From Escherichia phage vB_EcoM_DE16, in the sequence record OP595145.1: DNA of 64,000 nt; one strand, written 5' to 3'. Made by a program: the position numbers and the translations under genes. Below are positions 33,850 through 59,681 of this stretch, piece by piece. Every line of letters starts with the position of its first letter. Positions within the stretch are counted from its first letter, which is position 1. The notes below the pieces were generated by a model. It was given only the letters and a program-made list of their open reading frames with translations. It made no database searches and was not told the DNA's origin.

Positions 33850-34409
33850 ACACCCTCGCTACGTAACTGTTGAAAAGATTTAGCCATTGCATCTTTTGTT
33901 GATAGGATAGGTTTAAAACCTTCATCAAAAATCATATCGAAGCCCCAATCGATCCCTATATCAGGATCATCCCAACGTAAACTTTGTTCACTAGAAGGGT
34001 CGTATGGAGTTGTGCATTTGTATTCAAAGATAGCATCCATACTCAAAACTATAAAACCATGTGCCAAACCAGGTGGAAGCCAAAACTGCGTATGGTGTCG
34101 TGCACGAAGAACAACACCGTCCCAAGCACCGTAAGTAGGACTATCTTTACGTAAGTCTACAGCGAAATCCAATACTTCACCACTTACACAACGAACAAGC
34201 TTACCTTGCGGATTATTTGTTTGAAAGTGCATTCCTCGCAAAACACCGAAGTTTGATTTAGACATGTTATCTTGAACGAAAGTTTGTCTACCAATAATAT
34301 CTTCGTATTTTTGTTCATTATATGTTTCTAAAAAGAAACCACGGTCATCTTTATAAACGTCTGGTTTGATAATTACCGCACCTTCAATTTTTGTTTTTTC
34401 TACTTTCAT
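33843..34409 (-). CDS. rmlC: dTDP-4-dehydrorhamnose 3,5-epimerase
   Basis: cupin-type RmlC region [12 protein letters not shown]; start at ATG 34409 overlapping rmlA stop (ATGA). Confidence 0.75.
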
Positions 34410-56570: not shown

Positions 56571-56819
56571 ATGTCTCTATTAGAAAAACACGTGTTTGAA
56601 GATGGTAACGGCAATGCAGTTTTTCTTTTCCATCCAGAAAAATACACATCTGAAAACAATGGTACAACTTCTATTGTAATCACTAAAGATGTTAAAGTTA
56701 TTGATTTCTTGGCTCTAATGCGAGAGATGGATCTTGAAATTAATACTTTTAACGCAGAAGCTTTGGTTGTTGCTCTTCTGGAAAAGAAAGATAGTGAAGA
56801 AGTAGCAGAATATGCTTAA
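56571..56819 (+). CDS. hypothetical protein (82 aa)
   Basis: ATG 56571 preceded by TTAGGAGG. Confidence 0.55.
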   Translation: MSLLEKHVFEDGNGNAVFLFHPEKYTSENNGTTSIVITKDVKVIDFLALMREMDLEINTFNAEALVVALLEKKDSEEVAEYA

Positions 56820-56825
56820 ATAACT

Positions 56826-56855
56826 ATTGACAAACGTATCCTTCATATGTTAGGA
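56826..56855 (+). promoter_or_regulatory. promoter AACTATTGACA-N18-TAGGAT with overlapping inverted repeat GTATCCT ... AGGATAC
   Basis: perfect -35; upstream motif recurs at 57415 and 58570. Confidence 0.5.
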
Positions 56856-57065
56856 TACGTTCATCAAGTGTGGTAAGAGGGTCGTTGACTTTTGTTAAGA
56901 TGGGCTTGCACTGCGGTAGTGTTAGAGACTACTTCTTCAGAGGTTAGCTACCAAAGAGGAAAAGGAATAGTCTCGGCTCAAGAACTTTTACGCTGAAAGT
57001 TGGGCTTGGTCTTAGAGAATGTAGCGGTTCTCTACAATCGTCAGCGTCTCTGTTACCACATTTAT

Positions 57066-57140
57066 GGCCCTGTAGCTCAATGGGAGAGCTGTCGGCTCAT
57101 AACCGATAGGTAGCTGGATCGAAACCAGCCAGGGCCACCA
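57066..57140 (+). tRNA. tRNA-Met/Ile2 (anticodon CAT)
   Basis: full cloverleaf: acceptor GGCCCTG/CAGGGCC, loop CTCATAA, encoded CCA; resembles lysidine-type Ile tRNA. Confidence 0.8.
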
Positions 57141-57142
57141 AC

Positions 57143-57217
57143 GTCTTTATGGTGTAATGGATAGCACAGGAGTCTTCTAAACTCTTAGTCAAGGTTCGAT
57201 TCCTTGTAAAGACACCA
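57143..57217 (+). tRNA. tRNA-Arg (anticodon TCT)
   Basis: acceptor GTCTTTA/TAAAGAC, anticodon loop CTTCTAA, T-loop TTCGATT, CCA. Confidence 0.8.
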
Positions 57218-57414
57218 GAATATTTTAACATGAATTAGCTCAAGTGATTTGAACCCCACTACTGATCATGGTGGCAGAGAATGAGGCAAGTATGTCAGAC
57301 ATTATAAACAAAGGCCACGGTTATATTAGAAGACATAGACGCTCGAAGAGCACCGTTCGTGGAGAACGGGGGTTGGTGGAGTCACCATTCATGGTAAAAT
57401 GTTTTAAAAAACTA

Positions 57415-57444
57415 TTGACAACAAACATTATTTTATGTTAGATT
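57415..57444 (+). promoter_or_regulatory. promoter AACTATTGACA-N18-TAGATT
   Basis: same conserved -35 context as 56826 and 58570. Confidence 0.45.
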
Positions 57445-57452
57445 ATAAGTAT

Positions 57453-57543
57453 GGAAGGGCAAATCGACGTGGCGACGAAAACGGTCTTGAAAACCGCCGA
57501 GCTTGAAAGAGCCTTGGGAGTTCGACTCTCCCTCCTTCCGCCA
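57453..57543 (+). tRNA. tRNA-Ser (anticodon TGA), type II
   Basis: acceptor GGAAGGG/TCCTTCC, loop CTTGAAA, long variable arm, T-loop TTCGACT, CCA. Confidence 0.7.
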
Positions 57544-57548
57544 GATTA

Positions 57549-57634
57549 GGTAGATTGGTGAAATGGTAGCCACAACAGTTTGCTAAACTGTAGTCGGAAA
57601 CGGCGTGTAGGTTCGAGTCCTACATCTACCGCCA
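57549..57634 (+). tRNA. tRNA-Ser (anticodon GCT), type II
   Basis: acceptor GGTAGAT/ATCTACC, loop TTGCTAA, long variable arm, CCA. Confidence 0.75.
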
Positions 57635-57764
57635 AGTTCTTTTTAATATAGCTTACTTTAATAGAGTAAACTTTCGGCAGATGGCCTCCACCATCTTACC
57701 GATACTTCATAGTTAGTGGTGCGAACACTGGCTATTTTAAAAAGAATTTAAATACTAGCATTTA

Positions 57765-57852
57765 GGTGAGTTAATTCCGTAGGGGTAGCGGGGCAGACTG
57801 TAAATCTGTTATCATTGCGATTCGGGTGGTTCGACTCCATCACTCACCACCA
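57765..57852 (+). tRNA. tRNA-Tyr (anticodon GTA), type II
   Basis: acceptor GGTGAGT/ACTCACC, anticodon arm GCAGA-CTGTAAA-TCTGT, CCA. Confidence 0.75.
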
Positions 57853-57858
57853 AATTAA

Positions 57859-57944
57859 GATGAGTTGGCTGAATGGTTTAAGCGGCGGACTGTTAATCCG
57901 TGTTCGAAAGAACGATATAGGTTCAAATCCTATACTCATCGCCA
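57859..57944 (+). tRNA. tRNA-Asn-like (anticodon GTT) with atypical 15-nt variable arm
   Basis: anticodon arm GCGGA-CTGTTAA-TCCGT matches Asn tRNAs, but GTTC-GAAA-GAAC hairpin inserted in variable region. Confidence 0.5.
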
Positions 57945-57951
57945 GAATTAT

Positions 57952-58028
57952 GGACTTGTAGAGTTAAGGTAAACCCCCAGTCGCCAAGAGGCTTCTGGAA
58001 TTGCAGGTATCGAATCCTGCCGAGTCCC
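57952..58028 (+). other. degenerate tRNA-like element
   Basis: 7-bp acceptor pairing and T-arm GCAGG ... CCTGC with 8-nt loop, but no canonical anticodon arm. Confidence 0.3.
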
Positions 58029-58034
58029 AGCTTT

Positions 58035-58109
58035 GCTCCTATAGTATAATGGCTATTACAACGGTTTTGTAATCCGTGGATCTCTGTTCGATTCAGAGTG
58101 GGAGCACCA
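58035..58109 (+). tRNA. tRNA-Thr (anticodon TGT)
   Basis: acceptor GCTCCTA/TGGGAGC, loop TTTGTAA, T-arm CTCTG-TTCGATT-CAGAG, CCA. Confidence 0.75.
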
Positions 58110-58569
58110 ACATAACAGGTAAGAACATTTAGGCTACTGAGAAATCATCCGAGGCAATCAGACCTATCTTCTGTTAAGTGTTCTTATCGTTGTGAAGAAA
58201 GCAAACTTATTGAATGTAAGCGGACGAAAGACATTCACTAACCTGTAGTAAGGTCGAGCCAAAGCGCGGTAATGAGTTCCGAGGTTAGTATTCACAACAC
58301 AACATTAAGAGCACTGTGATTGATCGTCGTATCCTGTGCACAAGGTCTGCTCGAAAGACAGTGTTCTTAGTATTGTGTTGATCACAAAAAGAGTTACCTG
58401 AAACTTGACCGGAGTAGGGTTGGATGGGGCAAAAGAAGAAGCGGCTCTCCCATCGACAGCAACGAAGAATAATATTTGACTTTGGTTTTGTATTATTTTA
58501 AGTTAGCTTACCGAACGTAGGGCTAGTCACCCAATGGGATACTCGTCACTGTCCCACTCAATAAAACTA

Positions 58570-58599
58570 TTGACAACCAATAGTAAAATGTAGTATAGT
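58570..58599 (+). promoter_or_regulatory. promoter AACTATTGACA-N18-TATAGT
   Basis: perfect -35 and 5/6 -10, just upstream of tRNA-Gly. Confidence 0.55.
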
Positions 58600-58610
58600 A
58601 AAGATGTAGG

Positions 58611-58684
58611 GCGTTCTTGGTGTAGCGGTAGCATTCCGTCCTTCCAAGTCGGCGGCACGAGTTCGATCCTCGTAGAACGCTCCA
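58611..58684 (+). tRNA. tRNA-Gly (anticodon TCC)
   Basis: acceptor GCGTTCT/AGAACGC, loop CTTCCAA, T-arm ACGAG-TTCGATC-CTCGT, CCA. Confidence 0.7.
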
Positions 58685-58782
58685 AATTATTTAATAAAGG
58701 GTTGCCAGAAAACTTTCTCTTTTACTCATGGTTTTCTCCTTCTCTCACACCTCTTCTGGTTGCCCTTCATTAAATGATTTAT

Positions 58783-58858
58783 TGGTTTGTAGTGTAGTCA
58801 GGTAGCACACGACACTTTGACTGTCGTAGGTTTGGTTCAAATCCAGACAGACCAGCCA
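58783..58858 (+). tRNA. tRNA-Gln (anticodon TTG)
   Basis: U1-A72 acceptor TGGTTTG/CAGACCA, anticodon arm CGACA-CTTTGAC-TGTCG, discriminator G, CCA. Confidence 0.8.
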
Positions 58859-58863
58859 TATAA

Positions 58864-58940
58864 CGGAATTTAGCTCAGTTTGGTAGAGTGTACGCTTTGG
58901 GAGCGTATTGTCGCAGGTTCGAATCCTGCAATTCCGACCA
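58864..58940 (+). tRNA. tRNA-Pro (anticodon TGG)
   Basis: acceptor CGGAATT/AATTCCG, anticodon arm TACGC-TTTGGGA-GCGTA, CCA. Confidence 0.8.
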
Positions 58941-58946
58941 ATTAAA

Positions 58947-59020
58947 TGTTTCGTAGTTCAATGGTAGAACCCACGACTGATAATCGTGAGACACAAGTTC
59001 GATTCTTGTCGAAACAACCA
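58947..59020 (+). tRNA. tRNA-Ile (anticodon GAT)
   Basis: acceptor TGTTTCG/CGAAACA, D-stem GTTC/GAAC, anticodon arm CACGA-CTGATAA-TCGTG, CCA. Confidence 0.75.
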
Positions 59021-59022
59021 GT

Positions 59023-59092
59023 TTCCCGTTAGACTTACAGGATAAGAGTTCCACAGCTTATTGTGATGCTGGTTCGAATCCAGCACGGGATA
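59023..59092 (+). other. degenerate tRNA-like element
   Basis: canonical T-arm GCTGG-TTCGAAT-CCAGC and acceptor pairing but no canonical anticodon arm; too short for full cloverleaf. Confidence 0.3.
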
Positions 59093-59098
59093 CCTAAT

Positions 59099-59177
59099 AG
59101 CGGGATAGAGGAGTCTGGTCGTCCTCGCCAGTTTCATATGCTGGAGATCATTGGTTCAAATCCAATTCCCGCCTCCA
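59099..59177 (+). tRNA. tRNA-Met (anticodon CAT), 1-72 mismatch
   Basis: D-stem GAGG/CCTC, anticodon arm CCAGT-TTCATAT-GCTGG, T-arm ATTGG-TTCAAAT-CCAAT, CCA; A1 opposite C72. Confidence 0.65.
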
Positions 59178-59292
59178 AATATCGCTTGCCAGCGGTATCT
59201 TTGAAGACCTTGCCTGGTTCCTTCTAAGATGGAGGGGTGCGACTCCTTAACGCACAATTATAATAAAGCATTTCAAATTAACAGTATTTATT

Positions 59293-59316
59293 AGCCTCCT
59301 TATTGGAGGCTTTTTG
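59293..59316 (+). terminator. Rho-independent terminator (AGCCTCC-TTAT-GGAGGCT-TTTTT)
   Basis: perfect 7-bp stem plus T run after tRNA array. Confidence 0.75.
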
Positions 59317-59334
59317 CTATCTATTGAATAAAAC

Positions 59335-59363
59335 TTGACTTATTATTTTTTATATGTTAAGAT
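59335..59363 (+). promoter_or_regulatory. sigma70-like promoter (TTGACT, 17 nt, TAAGAT)
   Basis: upstream of 59385 gene. Confidence 0.45.
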
Positions 59364-59384
59364 AAAGTTTAGGAGGATTTTATT

Positions 59385-59681
59385 ATGCCTAAACTAAAAC
59401 GTGGTCGTGGAAGACCAACAGCCGAAATGCAACAGATTTACGCAATGGATGCGGCGCAAGCAAGTGTAAAAGAATTATTTGCAGAGCATTATTTAGAAGC
59501 TATGCGGTATATTGTTGAACTTGTTAATGATAAGGATGCAGCAAAACCTCTCCGCTTCCAAGCAGCTAAAGCTATTAAAGAGCAAGTAGAAGAATGGTTA
59601 GAAGAACATTATGAAGCTATGGAAGAAGAAACCCCTGCCGTGCAGAATACAGATGACGTTCCTAAAAAGATCGTAATCTAA
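59385..59681 (+). CDS. hypothetical protein with N-terminal RGRGRP basic motif (98 aa); possible DNA-binding
   Basis: strong SD AGGAGG; KRGRGRPT AT-hook-like segment. Confidence 0.55.
   Translation: MPKLKRGRGRPTAEMQQIYAMDAAQASVKELFAEHYLEAMRYIVELVNDKDAAKPLRFQAAKAIKEQVEEWLEEHYEAMEEETPAVQNTDDVPKKIVI

Follow-up and report, generated by a model that had tools for sequence, protein, structure and literature searches.

The transfer RNA (tRNA) cluster of Escherichia phage vB_EcoM_DE16 contains a gene with the anticodon GUU that very probably encodes an asparagine tRNA and that carries a 15-nucleotide (nt) variable region folded into an extra hairpin. We examined positions 57066–59177 (+ strand) of a 64,000-nt stretch of sequence record OP595145.1, referred to here as the window. 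Our best explanation is that this region is the tRNA cluster of a phAPEC8-like coliphage, transcribed as three units, and that the extra arm of its tRNA-Asn (57859–57944) is under selection; two tRNA-like elements lie in the cluster (element 1, 57952–58028; element 2, 59023–59092), and the last gene would encode an initiator tRNA. Taken as a whole, we hold this account to be probable, with moderate confidence.

The GUU tRNA folds as a clean cloverleaf, with the acceptor stem GAUGAGU/ACUCAUC (G1:C72 and A2:U71), G73 and an encoded CCA. The D stem has three base pairs (bp; G10-C11-U12) and is followed by G13·A22, and the anticodon arm is GCGGA-CUGUUAA-UCCGU. An 18-nt anticodon arm (GGCGGACUGUUAAUCCGU) is exactly that of Escherichia coli asnT, a gene with an ordinary variable loop of 5 nt, whereas the variable region of the phage tRNA (GTTCGAAAGAACGAT, 57902–57916) forms the hairpin GTTC-GAAA-GAAC, with a 4-bp stem, at 57902–57913. 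An earlier note, made from the letters of the window alone, had described an Asn-type anticodon arm combined with this 15-nt arm, and both are evident in the sequence and in the fold. The same note had called the tRNA atypical; the long arm is real, but it is not peculiar to the window, which holds one of at least 74 distinct phage sequences of this kind. Reassignment to a type II isotype found no support: ARAGORN identifies 57859–57944 as tRNA-Asn, the Rfam tRNA model scores it at 62 bits, and the annotation of the phage ASO2A agrees. A BLAST search of E. coli genomes with the long-arm tRNA returned a spurious match in yobD only.

The size of this class became apparent from a pattern scan of at least 120 stretches from IMG/VR. 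Among the 125 pattern matches listed, which include a few loci from elsewhere, ARAGORN found a GUU tRNA of 79–91 nt in 95, corresponding to at least 73 distinct sequences; across all phage loci that we examined there are at least 74. Of 74 distinct sequences in this class of at least that size, 68 (92%) have G73, 45 (61%) have U1:A72, the signature of bacterial tRNA-Asn, and 24 have G1:C72; the extra stem is 3–5 bp long in 60 and closed by a GAAA loop in 29, and the extra arm ranges from 11 to 19 nt. Related phages have different helices with the same loop, such as GAAC-GAAA-GUUC in the Justusliebigvirus muut, GAGA-GAAA-UCUC in the Klebsiella phage phi1_175008 and GUC-GAAA-GAC in the T4-like Erwinia phage Gravdalen. 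The consensus that RNAalifold gives for 21 diverse members includes the extra helix, with AU, UA, GC and CG exchanges in three of its four pairs. Because the helix covaries, stable tetraloops are preferred and the D arm is remodelled to match, we conclude from these comparisons that the extra hairpin is a selected structural module of a large class of phage tRNA-Asn.

Members of the class occur in T5-like phages, T4-like phages (including T4-like phages of Klebsiella), phiKZ (87 nt) and Stephanstirmvirinae, as well as on a 173,591-bp contig that we take to be Aeromonas phage 44RR2.8t. In T5-like phages, the long-arm allele is followed by the gene for RNA3 in 248 records (at least 80% query coverage) and the short T5 allele is followed by it in 93; the two forms therefore alternate at one locus. 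The long-arm gene is the only GUU tRNA of the stretch examined in 80 of 90 viral loci. A scan of cellular genomes (185,579 species, one genome each) returned 34 loci, only 18 of which have real long-arm GUU tRNAs, and 11 of these 18 lie within dense arrays of 7–36 tRNA genes, for example in Micromonospora. Loci from Saprospiraceae were rejected, as ARAGORN called either an ordinary 75-nt tRNA-Asn or no tRNA there. The long-arm tRNA-Asn is annotated everywhere simply as tRNA-Asn, and the class is apparently undescribed: full-text literature searches, which did not reach the early T5 literature, found no published account of it.

Other isotypes that normally have short arms can also carry a long one in phage or mobile tRNA arrays. 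We found them on 9 of 39 copies of tRNA-Cys(GCA), 5 of 42 of tRNA-Trp(CCA) and 8 of 13 of tRNA-Ile(UAU), on tRNA-Thr(UGU) (87 nt) in SP01-like T5 phages and on tRNA-Glu(UUC) (89 nt) in Klebsiella phage phi1_175008. Two metagenome bins have long-arm tRNA-Lys(UUU) of 88–90 nt, and none of 56 phage copies of tRNA-Lys(UUU) has the arm. An unannotated 84-nt gap in phi1_175008 contains a tRNA-like sequence whose loop, CUCCAAA, gives the anticodon CCA (Trp); its T arm and acceptor stem are good and its D region is aberrant. In some Phapecoctavirus (phiWec190 and one IMG/VR contig), an open reading frame (ORF) of 42 codons (MLFDNWFDLEKVCIGITFTGGAPE.KYAMLQTNGLSVRLQSI) stands in place of the long-arm Asn gene.

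The amino-acid identity of the GUU tRNA has to be weighed against its resemblance to tRNA-Ser. E. coli asparaginyl-tRNA synthetase (AsnRS) recognizes the three anticodon bases and G73, a set that can be transplanted into tRNA-Lys (PMC9976931), and the window tRNA has both GUU and G73. It departs from the type I architecture of bacterial tRNA-Asn, that is, a variable loop of 4–5 nt, a 4-bp D stem and U1:A72. If it were instead a serine acceptor with an asparagine anticodon, serine would be inserted at AAY codons, as deliberate mistranslation or recoding of the kind shown by allo-tRNAs and nematode extra-arm tRNAs. Several features speak for this and weigh against asparagine: the long extra arm and G73 are the main features seen by seryl-tRNA synthetase (SerRS), the window copy has G1:C72 and C11:G24 as in tRNA-Ser rather than the U1:A72 typical of tRNA-Asn, and its 3-bp D stem has G13·A22. 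Serine identity lies chiefly in the extra arm, reinforced by G73 and acceptor pairs, and SerRS ignores the anticodon (PMC9976931), so that some serylation is possible; allo-tRNAs with non-Ser anticodons indeed put serine or alanine into E. coli proteins (PMC5389517). However, G1:C72 and G2:C71 are both invariant in bacterial tRNA-Ser (PMC9976931), and the GUU tRNA has only the first, with A:U at 2:71; both Ser tRNAs of the phage itself start with GG and have both pairs. The Asn-type U1:A72 prevails in the class, and 28 of the 74 sequences have C2:G71, which in tRNA-Leu is an anti-determinant for SerRS (PMC9976931). Moreover, the long-arm tRNA is usually the sole Asn tRNA of its array, in T5-like phages it and a normal tRNA-Asn alternate at one locus, and asparagine accounts for 4.9% of all codons in the phage ORFs, so that serine there would damage every protein. 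We consider a serine acceptor highly improbable. The asparagine reading, and with it charging by AsnRS, appears very probable because GUU and G73 are present, the anticodon arm is identical to that of the host, G2:C71 is absent, serine at AAY codons would be ruinous and hundreds of genomes retain this gene as their only Asn tRNA.

It is very unlikely that the arm is a neutral, functionless insertion hitch-hiking with a useful tRNA gene: it is short, varies in length and has no conserved sequence beyond the tetraloop, but compensatory changes keep the helix in three of four pairs, there is a strong preference for stable loops of the GNRA or UUCG kind, remodelling has given the D arm a type II-like form, and the module recurs in unrelated phage families and on several isotypes. 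In the reading that we favour, the arm, with decoding left intact, may change how host proteins other than AsnRS see the tRNA, and the prime candidates are the tRNA-cleaving nucleases of defence systems. One such nuclease, AriB of PARIS, cleaves the E. coli tRNAs for Lys (UUU), Thr (UGU) and Asn (GUU) between positions 40 and 41 and needs contacts beyond the anticodon arm, including the D loop (PMC12409363). The Lys, Thr and Asn tRNAs of T5, which are substituted around the cut site, overcome PARIS, and once host tRNA-Asn has been cut, growth and infection are rescued with the help of the short T5 tRNA-Asn (PMC12409363). The T5 tRNA-Asn has GUU instead of UCC at positions 39–41 and a U30·U40 mismatch, whereas the long-arm alleles keep the host sequence UAAUCC at the AriB cut site; at this locus, a T5-like phage thus has a mutated stem or else an extra arm, which makes nuclease evasion an attractive hypothesis.

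On this hypothesis, the arm is an anti-defence device, a steric or geometric block to tRNA nucleases (PARIS AriB, colicin-E5-like enzymes or others) placed on a host-identical anticodon arm. It would be an alternative to the anticodon-stem mutations of T5, and it refines the reading of the arm as a selected module of a tRNA-Asn rather than contradicting it. Besides the properties of AriB and of the T5 alleles, it is favoured by the long-arm tRNA-Thr(UGU) in the same T5-like genomes, by the near confinement of the class to phages and mobile tRNA arrays, and by Septu, which is reported to cleave the variable loop of tRNA-Tyr, so that this region matters to defence nucleases (PMC13096335). Other observations count against it. 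Lys(UUU), the prime nuclease target, has no long arm in any of the 56 phage copies, and Cys, Trp, Glu and Ile(UAU) tRNAs can have one. We know of no nucleases that target Cys, Trp or Glu tRNAs. The window tRNA retains the exact AriB cut sequence UAAUC|C and would be a target if the arm gave no protection. The phages Bas26, Bas28, Bas30 and Bas32 all have long-arm tRNA-Asn; the T5 relative Bas34 has a tRNA-Asn of its own, of the long or the short form, yet needs the T5 copy against PARIS (PMC12409363). We therefore put forward the anti-defence role only tentatively, as a possibility to which we give about one part in four of our belief. A wider version is somewhat more doubtful still: stable extra arms on type I tRNAs (Asn here; Thr, Cys, Trp, Glu, Ile and Lys elsewhere) might be a general phage strategy that hides them from tRNA-cleaving immune nucleases with synthetase identity and decoding kept, and element 1, an RNA3-type mimic, might be a co-inherited decoy or competitor.

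Element 1 has a 7-bp acceptor stem (G1:C72), U8-A9, a poorly paired D region with a conserved box (GUAGAGUUAAGGUAAACC) and no CCA (minimum free energy (MFE) z = −2.8). A central hairpin, CCAG-UC-GCC-AAGA-GGC-UU-CUGG, with a 4-nt loop replaces the anticodon arm, and the T arm, GCAGG-UAUCGAAU-CCUGC, has a 5-bp stem and an 8-nt loop. Homologs lie directly 3′ of tRNA-Asn in Justusliebigvirus and T5-like phages. In the T5 reference, the homolog is annotated as ‘rna3, RNA3, putative tRNA-like RNA’ (33877–33949) and begins two bases past tRNA-Asn, and BF23 carries this annotation too; by homology of sequence and structure and by its position 3′ of tRNA-Asn, element 1 falls into this RNA3 family. We aligned seven variants, which represent three lineages. 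In this alignment 98.5% of the cells form pairs, as opposed to 23–52% in slid controls, and both sides have changed in 9 of 19 pairs: four of these belong to the acceptor stem, three to the T stem and two to the central hairpin. The conserved parts are the box GUAGAGUUAAG(G)UAAACC and the 8-nt T loop YAUCRAAU. The lineages differ in the sequence and length of the central hairpin and in the size of its loop (4, 4 and 6 nt), which excludes a decoding role. A covariance model of element 1 gives scores of 56–103 bits only at loci of Stephanstirmvirinae and T5-like phages, and ordinary tRNAs score 30 bits or less. The element is also kept where the Asn gene has been replaced, 7 nt past the stop codon of the 42-codon ORF in phiWec190 and one IMG/VR contig. 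Searches of IMG/VR located four Phapecoctavirus loci by the pattern of element 1 and one by an initiator-tRNA anchor.

These comparisons identify element 1 as a maintained, non-decoding tRNA-like RNA of the T5 RNA3 family and not a decaying gene. Three points weigh against this: the element lacks the encoded 3′ ACCA of T5 (it ends ...GAGUCC-C-AGC in the window, and the muut copy also lacks CCA); in the Klebsiella relative phi1_175008, the corresponding slot is filled by an unrelated spacer of 90 nt; and the covariation, from three lineages, represents few independent events. RNase P recognizes minihelices formed by acceptor and T arms, and this suggests release of element 1 from its precursor: its 5′ end would be freed by RNase P, and it might act as a processing or 3′-end element or as a stable tRNA mimic. 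A role as decoy is possible. A call of tRNA-Leu(CAA) for element 1, made by ARAGORN at a threshold of 80%, was rejected; it would require C33 together with a stem of 4 bp, position 37 is U in a close variant, and the T5 and Justusliebigvirus homologs have loops of 6 and 4 nt. With this setting, ARAGORN makes 53 calls across the window, and some 37 of these fall in the 62 kb that lie outside the cluster.

Element 2 is less regular, with a 6-bp acceptor stem, U1·U72, no D arm and a 3′ tail ACCU (MFE z = −2.9). Its central hairpin consists of UUACA-GG-AUAAG, a 10-nt loop and CUUAU-UGUGA, and its T arm, GCUGG-UUCGAAU-CCAGC, is perfect. It was found only in Phapecoctavirus records. Across five variants, the acceptor stem and T arm are invariant; two loop positions and the 3′ tail differ, position 72 is U or C (keeping the mismatch), and phiWec190 has a 1-nt deletion in the inner stem. 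None of this variation is compensatory, and the lack of covariation weighs against a maintained structure. No parent tRNA or distant homolog emerged when 1,313 phage tRNAs and every locus were searched by short-word blastn, or when the element was globally aligned with neighbouring tRNAs in relatives and with the full set of 1,313; these comparisons gave generic T-arm similarity only, and the element-1 covariance model scores element 2 at 23 bits, like any tRNA. Justusliebigvirus has tRNA-Leu(UAG) directly upstream of the initiator-type tRNA and an unrelated, structured 77-nt spacer two genes upstream. A tRNA with a four-base anticodon, called for element 2 by ARAGORN at the 80% threshold, was rejected in view of the number of calls made outside the cluster at that setting. 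At 59085–59107, nearly the same letters occur in the 3′ acceptor strand of element 2 (ACGGGAUA) and at the 5′ start of the gene that follows (GCGGGAUA), so that the 5′ strand of the element could pair with either; the near-repeat may be a duplication scar or allow alternative folding of the precursor. Element 2 would still present an acceptor/T-arm minihelix just upstream of the initiator tRNA, and we regard a tRNA relic that merely persists and a minimal RNase P handle before the initiator tRNA as about equally likely.

The earlier note had described two degenerate elements that keep acceptor pairing and a T arm and lack a canonical anticodon arm. The folds bear out this architecture, with 7-bp and 6-bp acceptor stems, 5-bp T stems and no anticodon arm of 5 bp with a 7-nt loop, and neither element becomes a standard tRNA in ARAGORN at default settings or matches any Rfam family at E ≤ 10. 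The word ‘degenerate’ suits element 2 better, as it is restricted to one genus and varies without compensation, and does not suit element 1, a conserved and covarying homolog of T5/BF23 RNA3. That both elements are decaying tRNA pseudogenes without a role would agree with their lack of anticodon loops, their failure to pass tRNA detectors, the stem deletion and other non-compensatory changes of element 2 and the absence of element 1 from the Klebsiella relative. It is unlikely, given that element 1 has nine covarying pairs and almost complete pairing in phages of different families, conserves its 8-nt T loop and D-region box, and outlives the loss of the adjacent Asn gene.

The last gene of the cluster (59099–59177) has the anticodon CAU, and the A1·C72 mismatch that the earlier note had singled out is present; it is no oddity, being a hallmark of bacterial-type initiators. 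Initiator determinants are the lack of a Watson–Crick 1:72 pair, G2:C71 and C3:G70 (for the formylase) and A11:U24, and the gene has all of these, followed by U73 and an encoded CCA. It does not have the three G:C pairs at 29–31:39–41 (these are A29:U41, G30:C40 and U31·G39) or A73. The annotated T5 tRNAfMet departs in the same way, without the three G:C pairs and without A73. In relatives, the 1·72 mismatch is kept while its bases drift (C·C in muut, U·C in the Klebsiella phage and U·U in T5 tRNAfMet), and GCGGG at positions 2–6 and U73 are common to this tRNA and the initiator-type tRNAs of relatives. E. coli tRNAfMet also has GCGGG at 2–6. The last CAU tRNA is best read as a phage initiator tRNA.

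The features of the cluster and its flanks, all on the + strand, are as follows.

56827–56856 (+): promoter-like site P1, TTGACA-18-TAGGAT with AACTAT just upstream; heads unit 1
56860–57065 (+): structured non-coding leader of unit 1; MFE −72.4 kcal/mol versus −53.6 kcal/mol in shuffles, z = −4.3
57066–57140 (+): tRNA with anticodon CAT, Ile2 type (AUA-reading); ARAGORN, Rfam 64.5 bits; the identical gene is Ile-CAT in ASO2A (tRNAscan-SE)
57143–57217 (+): tRNA-Arg(UCU); ARAGORN, Rfam
57415–57444 (+): promoter-like site P2; heads unit 2
57453–57543 (+): tRNA-Ser(UGA), 7/5 type, with a non-canonical D arm and the extra arm GCUU-GAAA-GAGC
57549–57634 (+): tRNA-Ser(GCU); ARAGORN, Rfam
57765–57852 (+): tRNA-Tyr(GUA); Rfam 39 bits; 88% identity to rV5 trnY and 84% to T5 tRNA-Tyr
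57859–57944 (+): long-arm tRNA(GUU), 86 nt, read as tRNA-Asn
57952–58028 (+): tRNA-like element 1, homolog of T5/BF23 RNA3
58035–58109 (+): tRNA-Thr(UGU); ARAGORN, Rfam
58570–58599 (+): promoter-like site P3, TTGACA-18-TATAGT; heads unit 3
58611–58684 (+): tRNA-Gly(UCC); ARAGORN, Rfam
58783–58858 (+): tRNA-Gln(UUG); ARAGORN, Rfam
58864–58940 (+): tRNA-Pro(UGG); ARAGORN, Rfam
58947–59020 (+): tRNA-Ile(GAU); ARAGORN, Rfam
59023–59092 (+): tRNA-like element 2
59099–59177 (+): tRNA-Met(CAU), initiator type by its sequence features; ARAGORN, Rfam, fold
59293–59311 (+): terminator-like intrinsic hairpin followed by a T run, closing the cluster; the record of phage ASO2A also has a terminator here

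The description of the region as a tRNA array was correct, and the twelve cloverleaf tRNAs listed in the earlier note all lie where it had placed them on the + strand. ARAGORN at default settings detects 10 of the 12; the Rfam tRNA model detects 11 (39–72 bits), gaining tRNA-Tyr(GTA) (57765–57849), and the twelfth, tRNA-Ser(UGA), is supported by its fold and by the annotation of ASO2A. The Rfam matches, all within 2.1 kb and with E values of 1e-4 to 8e-14 for a search of the whole window, are far beyond chance, and the curated record of the near-identical phage ASO2A lists twelve tRNAs with the same twelve anticodons (tRNAscan-SE). All twelve genes have an acceptor stem of 7 bp, an anticodon stem of 5 bp whose 7-nt loop includes U33, and a T arm, and all are detected by dedicated software. 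The Ser(UGA) tRNA is also structurally atypical, a point that the earlier note had not made. ARAGORN misses it by default and detects it at the 80% threshold, its best Rfam match is the tRNA-Sec model (37.4 bits, under the gathering score of 47), and tRNAscan-SE annotated it as tRNA-Ser-TGA in ASO2A. In the MFE fold, an acceptor stem of 7 bp, the anticodon loop CUUGAAA, the extra arm GCUU-GAAA-GAGC and a normal T arm are formed; the D arm is non-canonical, with a 3-bp stem, a 4-nt loop and a long linker. An 8/4 or Sec-like structure was rejected, and the gene assigned to the 7/5 type, because C·C would have to serve as the eighth acceptor pair. The tRNA-Ser(UGA) of T5, muut and phiWec190 is a different one: its acceptor stem has 8 bp and its T stem 4 bp (8/4), a type that has been reported from phages (PMC5389517). 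The record of Mt1B1_P17 flags the Tyr(GUA) and second CAU genes as pseudogenes. Both genes are conserved across genera and look functional, and such flags are probably wrong.

Over its full length, the interval 56800–59400 shares 98% identity with Shigella phage SF1-1; many Phapecoctavirus genomes (of the family-level group Stephanstirmvirinae) cover 93–94% of it at 98–99% identity, and 315 phage records match it. The identity to SF1-1 and the matching records indicate that the tRNA cluster at 57066–59177 (+) belongs to a lytic coliphage of the Phapecoctavirus type (phAPEC8-like), whose genome measures about 150 kb. Three promoter-like sites and one terminator-like hairpin suggest three polycistronic units: three sigma-70-type promoters would yield three polycistronic precursors, with one terminator closing the cluster, and host RNase P and 3′ exonucleases would excise the members of the cluster from them. 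The extended motif AACTATTGACAA is common to all three sites (56827, 57415 and 58570), where it follows an A-rich stretch within 56816–56838, 57404–57426 and 58559–58581, and suggests a single class of phage promoter for the tRNA units.

Neither the leader of unit 1 nor the spacers between tRNA genes contain ORFs that are convincing as genes. Four of these segments are strongly structured, each closed by a long terminal stem (56860–57065, MFE z = −4.3; 57218–57414, −3.3; 57635–57764, −4.4; 58685–58782, −4.9). The 130-nt spacer and tRNA-Tyr move as a single module (57631–57856), which is 92% identical in rV5-like phages (JEP1 and NHEP1) and 75% identical in the T5-like EH7. The first 90 nt 3′ of tRNA-Thr (58110–58202), which include a hairpin closed by UAAGAACA/UGUUCUUA, are 87–93% identical to sequences in the unrelated Klebsiella phages Zahir, P01 and VLCpiM12a and may be a small mobile or structured module.

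To relate the isoacceptor set to host codon usage, a comparison that the earlier note had proposed, we used ORF calls from the window (55 phage ORFs) and from a 50-kb stretch of E. coli K-12 (34 ORFs), limited samples that weigh somewhat against the result. The codons decoded by the tRNAs of the cluster rank among those most enriched in the phage, by 2.2-fold to 4.7-fold over E. coli (AGA, 4.7×; ACA, 4.5×; AUA, 4.3×; AGU, 3.2×; GGA, 2.5×; AAU, 2.3×; UAU, 2.2×). The twelve tRNAs would thus supplement codons that this AT-rich phage over-uses relative to its host, as phage tRNAs usually do.

In bacteria, the textbook long-arm tRNAs are those for Leu, Ser, Tyr and Sec only. A large phage class of tRNA-Asn with a long arm supported by covariation would extend this rule, and it raises the question of how a class IIb synthetase tolerates the arm. 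If the arm confers resistance to nucleases, it would be a second escape route beside anticodon-stem mutation, and one readily spotted in genomes. Element 1 links Stephanstirmvirinae phages to the RNA3 family of T5 and provides the first comparative structure model for RNA3. For annotation, two structured RNAs in the cluster lack annotation, the second CAU gene appears to be of the initiator type and the ‘pseudo’ flags on the Tyr and CAU genes should probably be removed. GenBank already contains many copies of the cluster and its tRNAs, and element 1 is a new member of a named, uncharacterised family.

Like RNA3 of T5 (gene rna3, T5s07) and BF23, element 1 lies directly 3′ of tRNA-Asn and has the same box, a T arm with a 5-bp stem and an 8-nt loop, an acceptor stem of 6–7 bp and a central hairpin in place of the anticodon arm; T5 RNA3 scores 76 bits with the covariance model. 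T5 RNA3 ends in ACCA and has U1·U72, whereas element 1 in the window has G1:C72 and no CCA. The central hairpins, of 22 nt in the window, 18 nt in T5 and 14 nt in Justusliebigvirus (CUAGA-AUUU-UCUAG), are wholly different in sequence. T4 and T2 also have small stable non-tRNA RNAs, rnaC and rnaD (species I and II), in a tRNA cluster; these are processed with the tRNAs and annotated in T2L, but they are longer (116–140 nt) than the two elements, and we saw no sequence similarity. The structured spacers resemble several of the ‘stable RNAs of unknown function’ annotated between T5 tRNA genes. The last CAU tRNA shares with T5 tRNAfMet (T5t14) the lack of a Watson–Crick 1:72 pair, GCGGG at 2–6, U73, an encoded CCA and the absence of the three G:C pairs; it has A·C rather than U·U at 1·72, and the D and T arm sequences differ.

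The long-arm tRNA shares with type II tRNAs (bacterial Ser, Leu and Tyr, and allo-tRNAs; PMC5389517) an extra helix between the anticodon and T arms, as do nematode extra-arm tRNAs according to the mention of Hamashima et al. in PMC5389517. The 3-bp D stem with G13·A22 is also type II-like, and G73 is as in tRNA-Ser. It differs in having the anticodon and anticodon arm of tRNA-Asn, no Ser-specific G2:C71 and a short extra stem (usually 3–5 bp, with a tetraloop), and its acceptor/T branch is of the ordinary 7/5 kind, whereas allo-tRNAs have 8/4 or 9/3. Phage tRNA-Tyr is reported to counter retron-Eco7 and Septu (PMC11555353 and PMC13096335). In the cluster, Asn(GUU), Thr(UGU) and Tyr(GUA), isotypes reported as nuclease targets, are neighbours, to which Justusliebigvirus relatives add Lys(UUU). 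The tRNAs of T5 escape through substitutions at or near the cut site; the tRNA-Asn of the window is host-like there and differs from that of the host in its extra arm and D arm.

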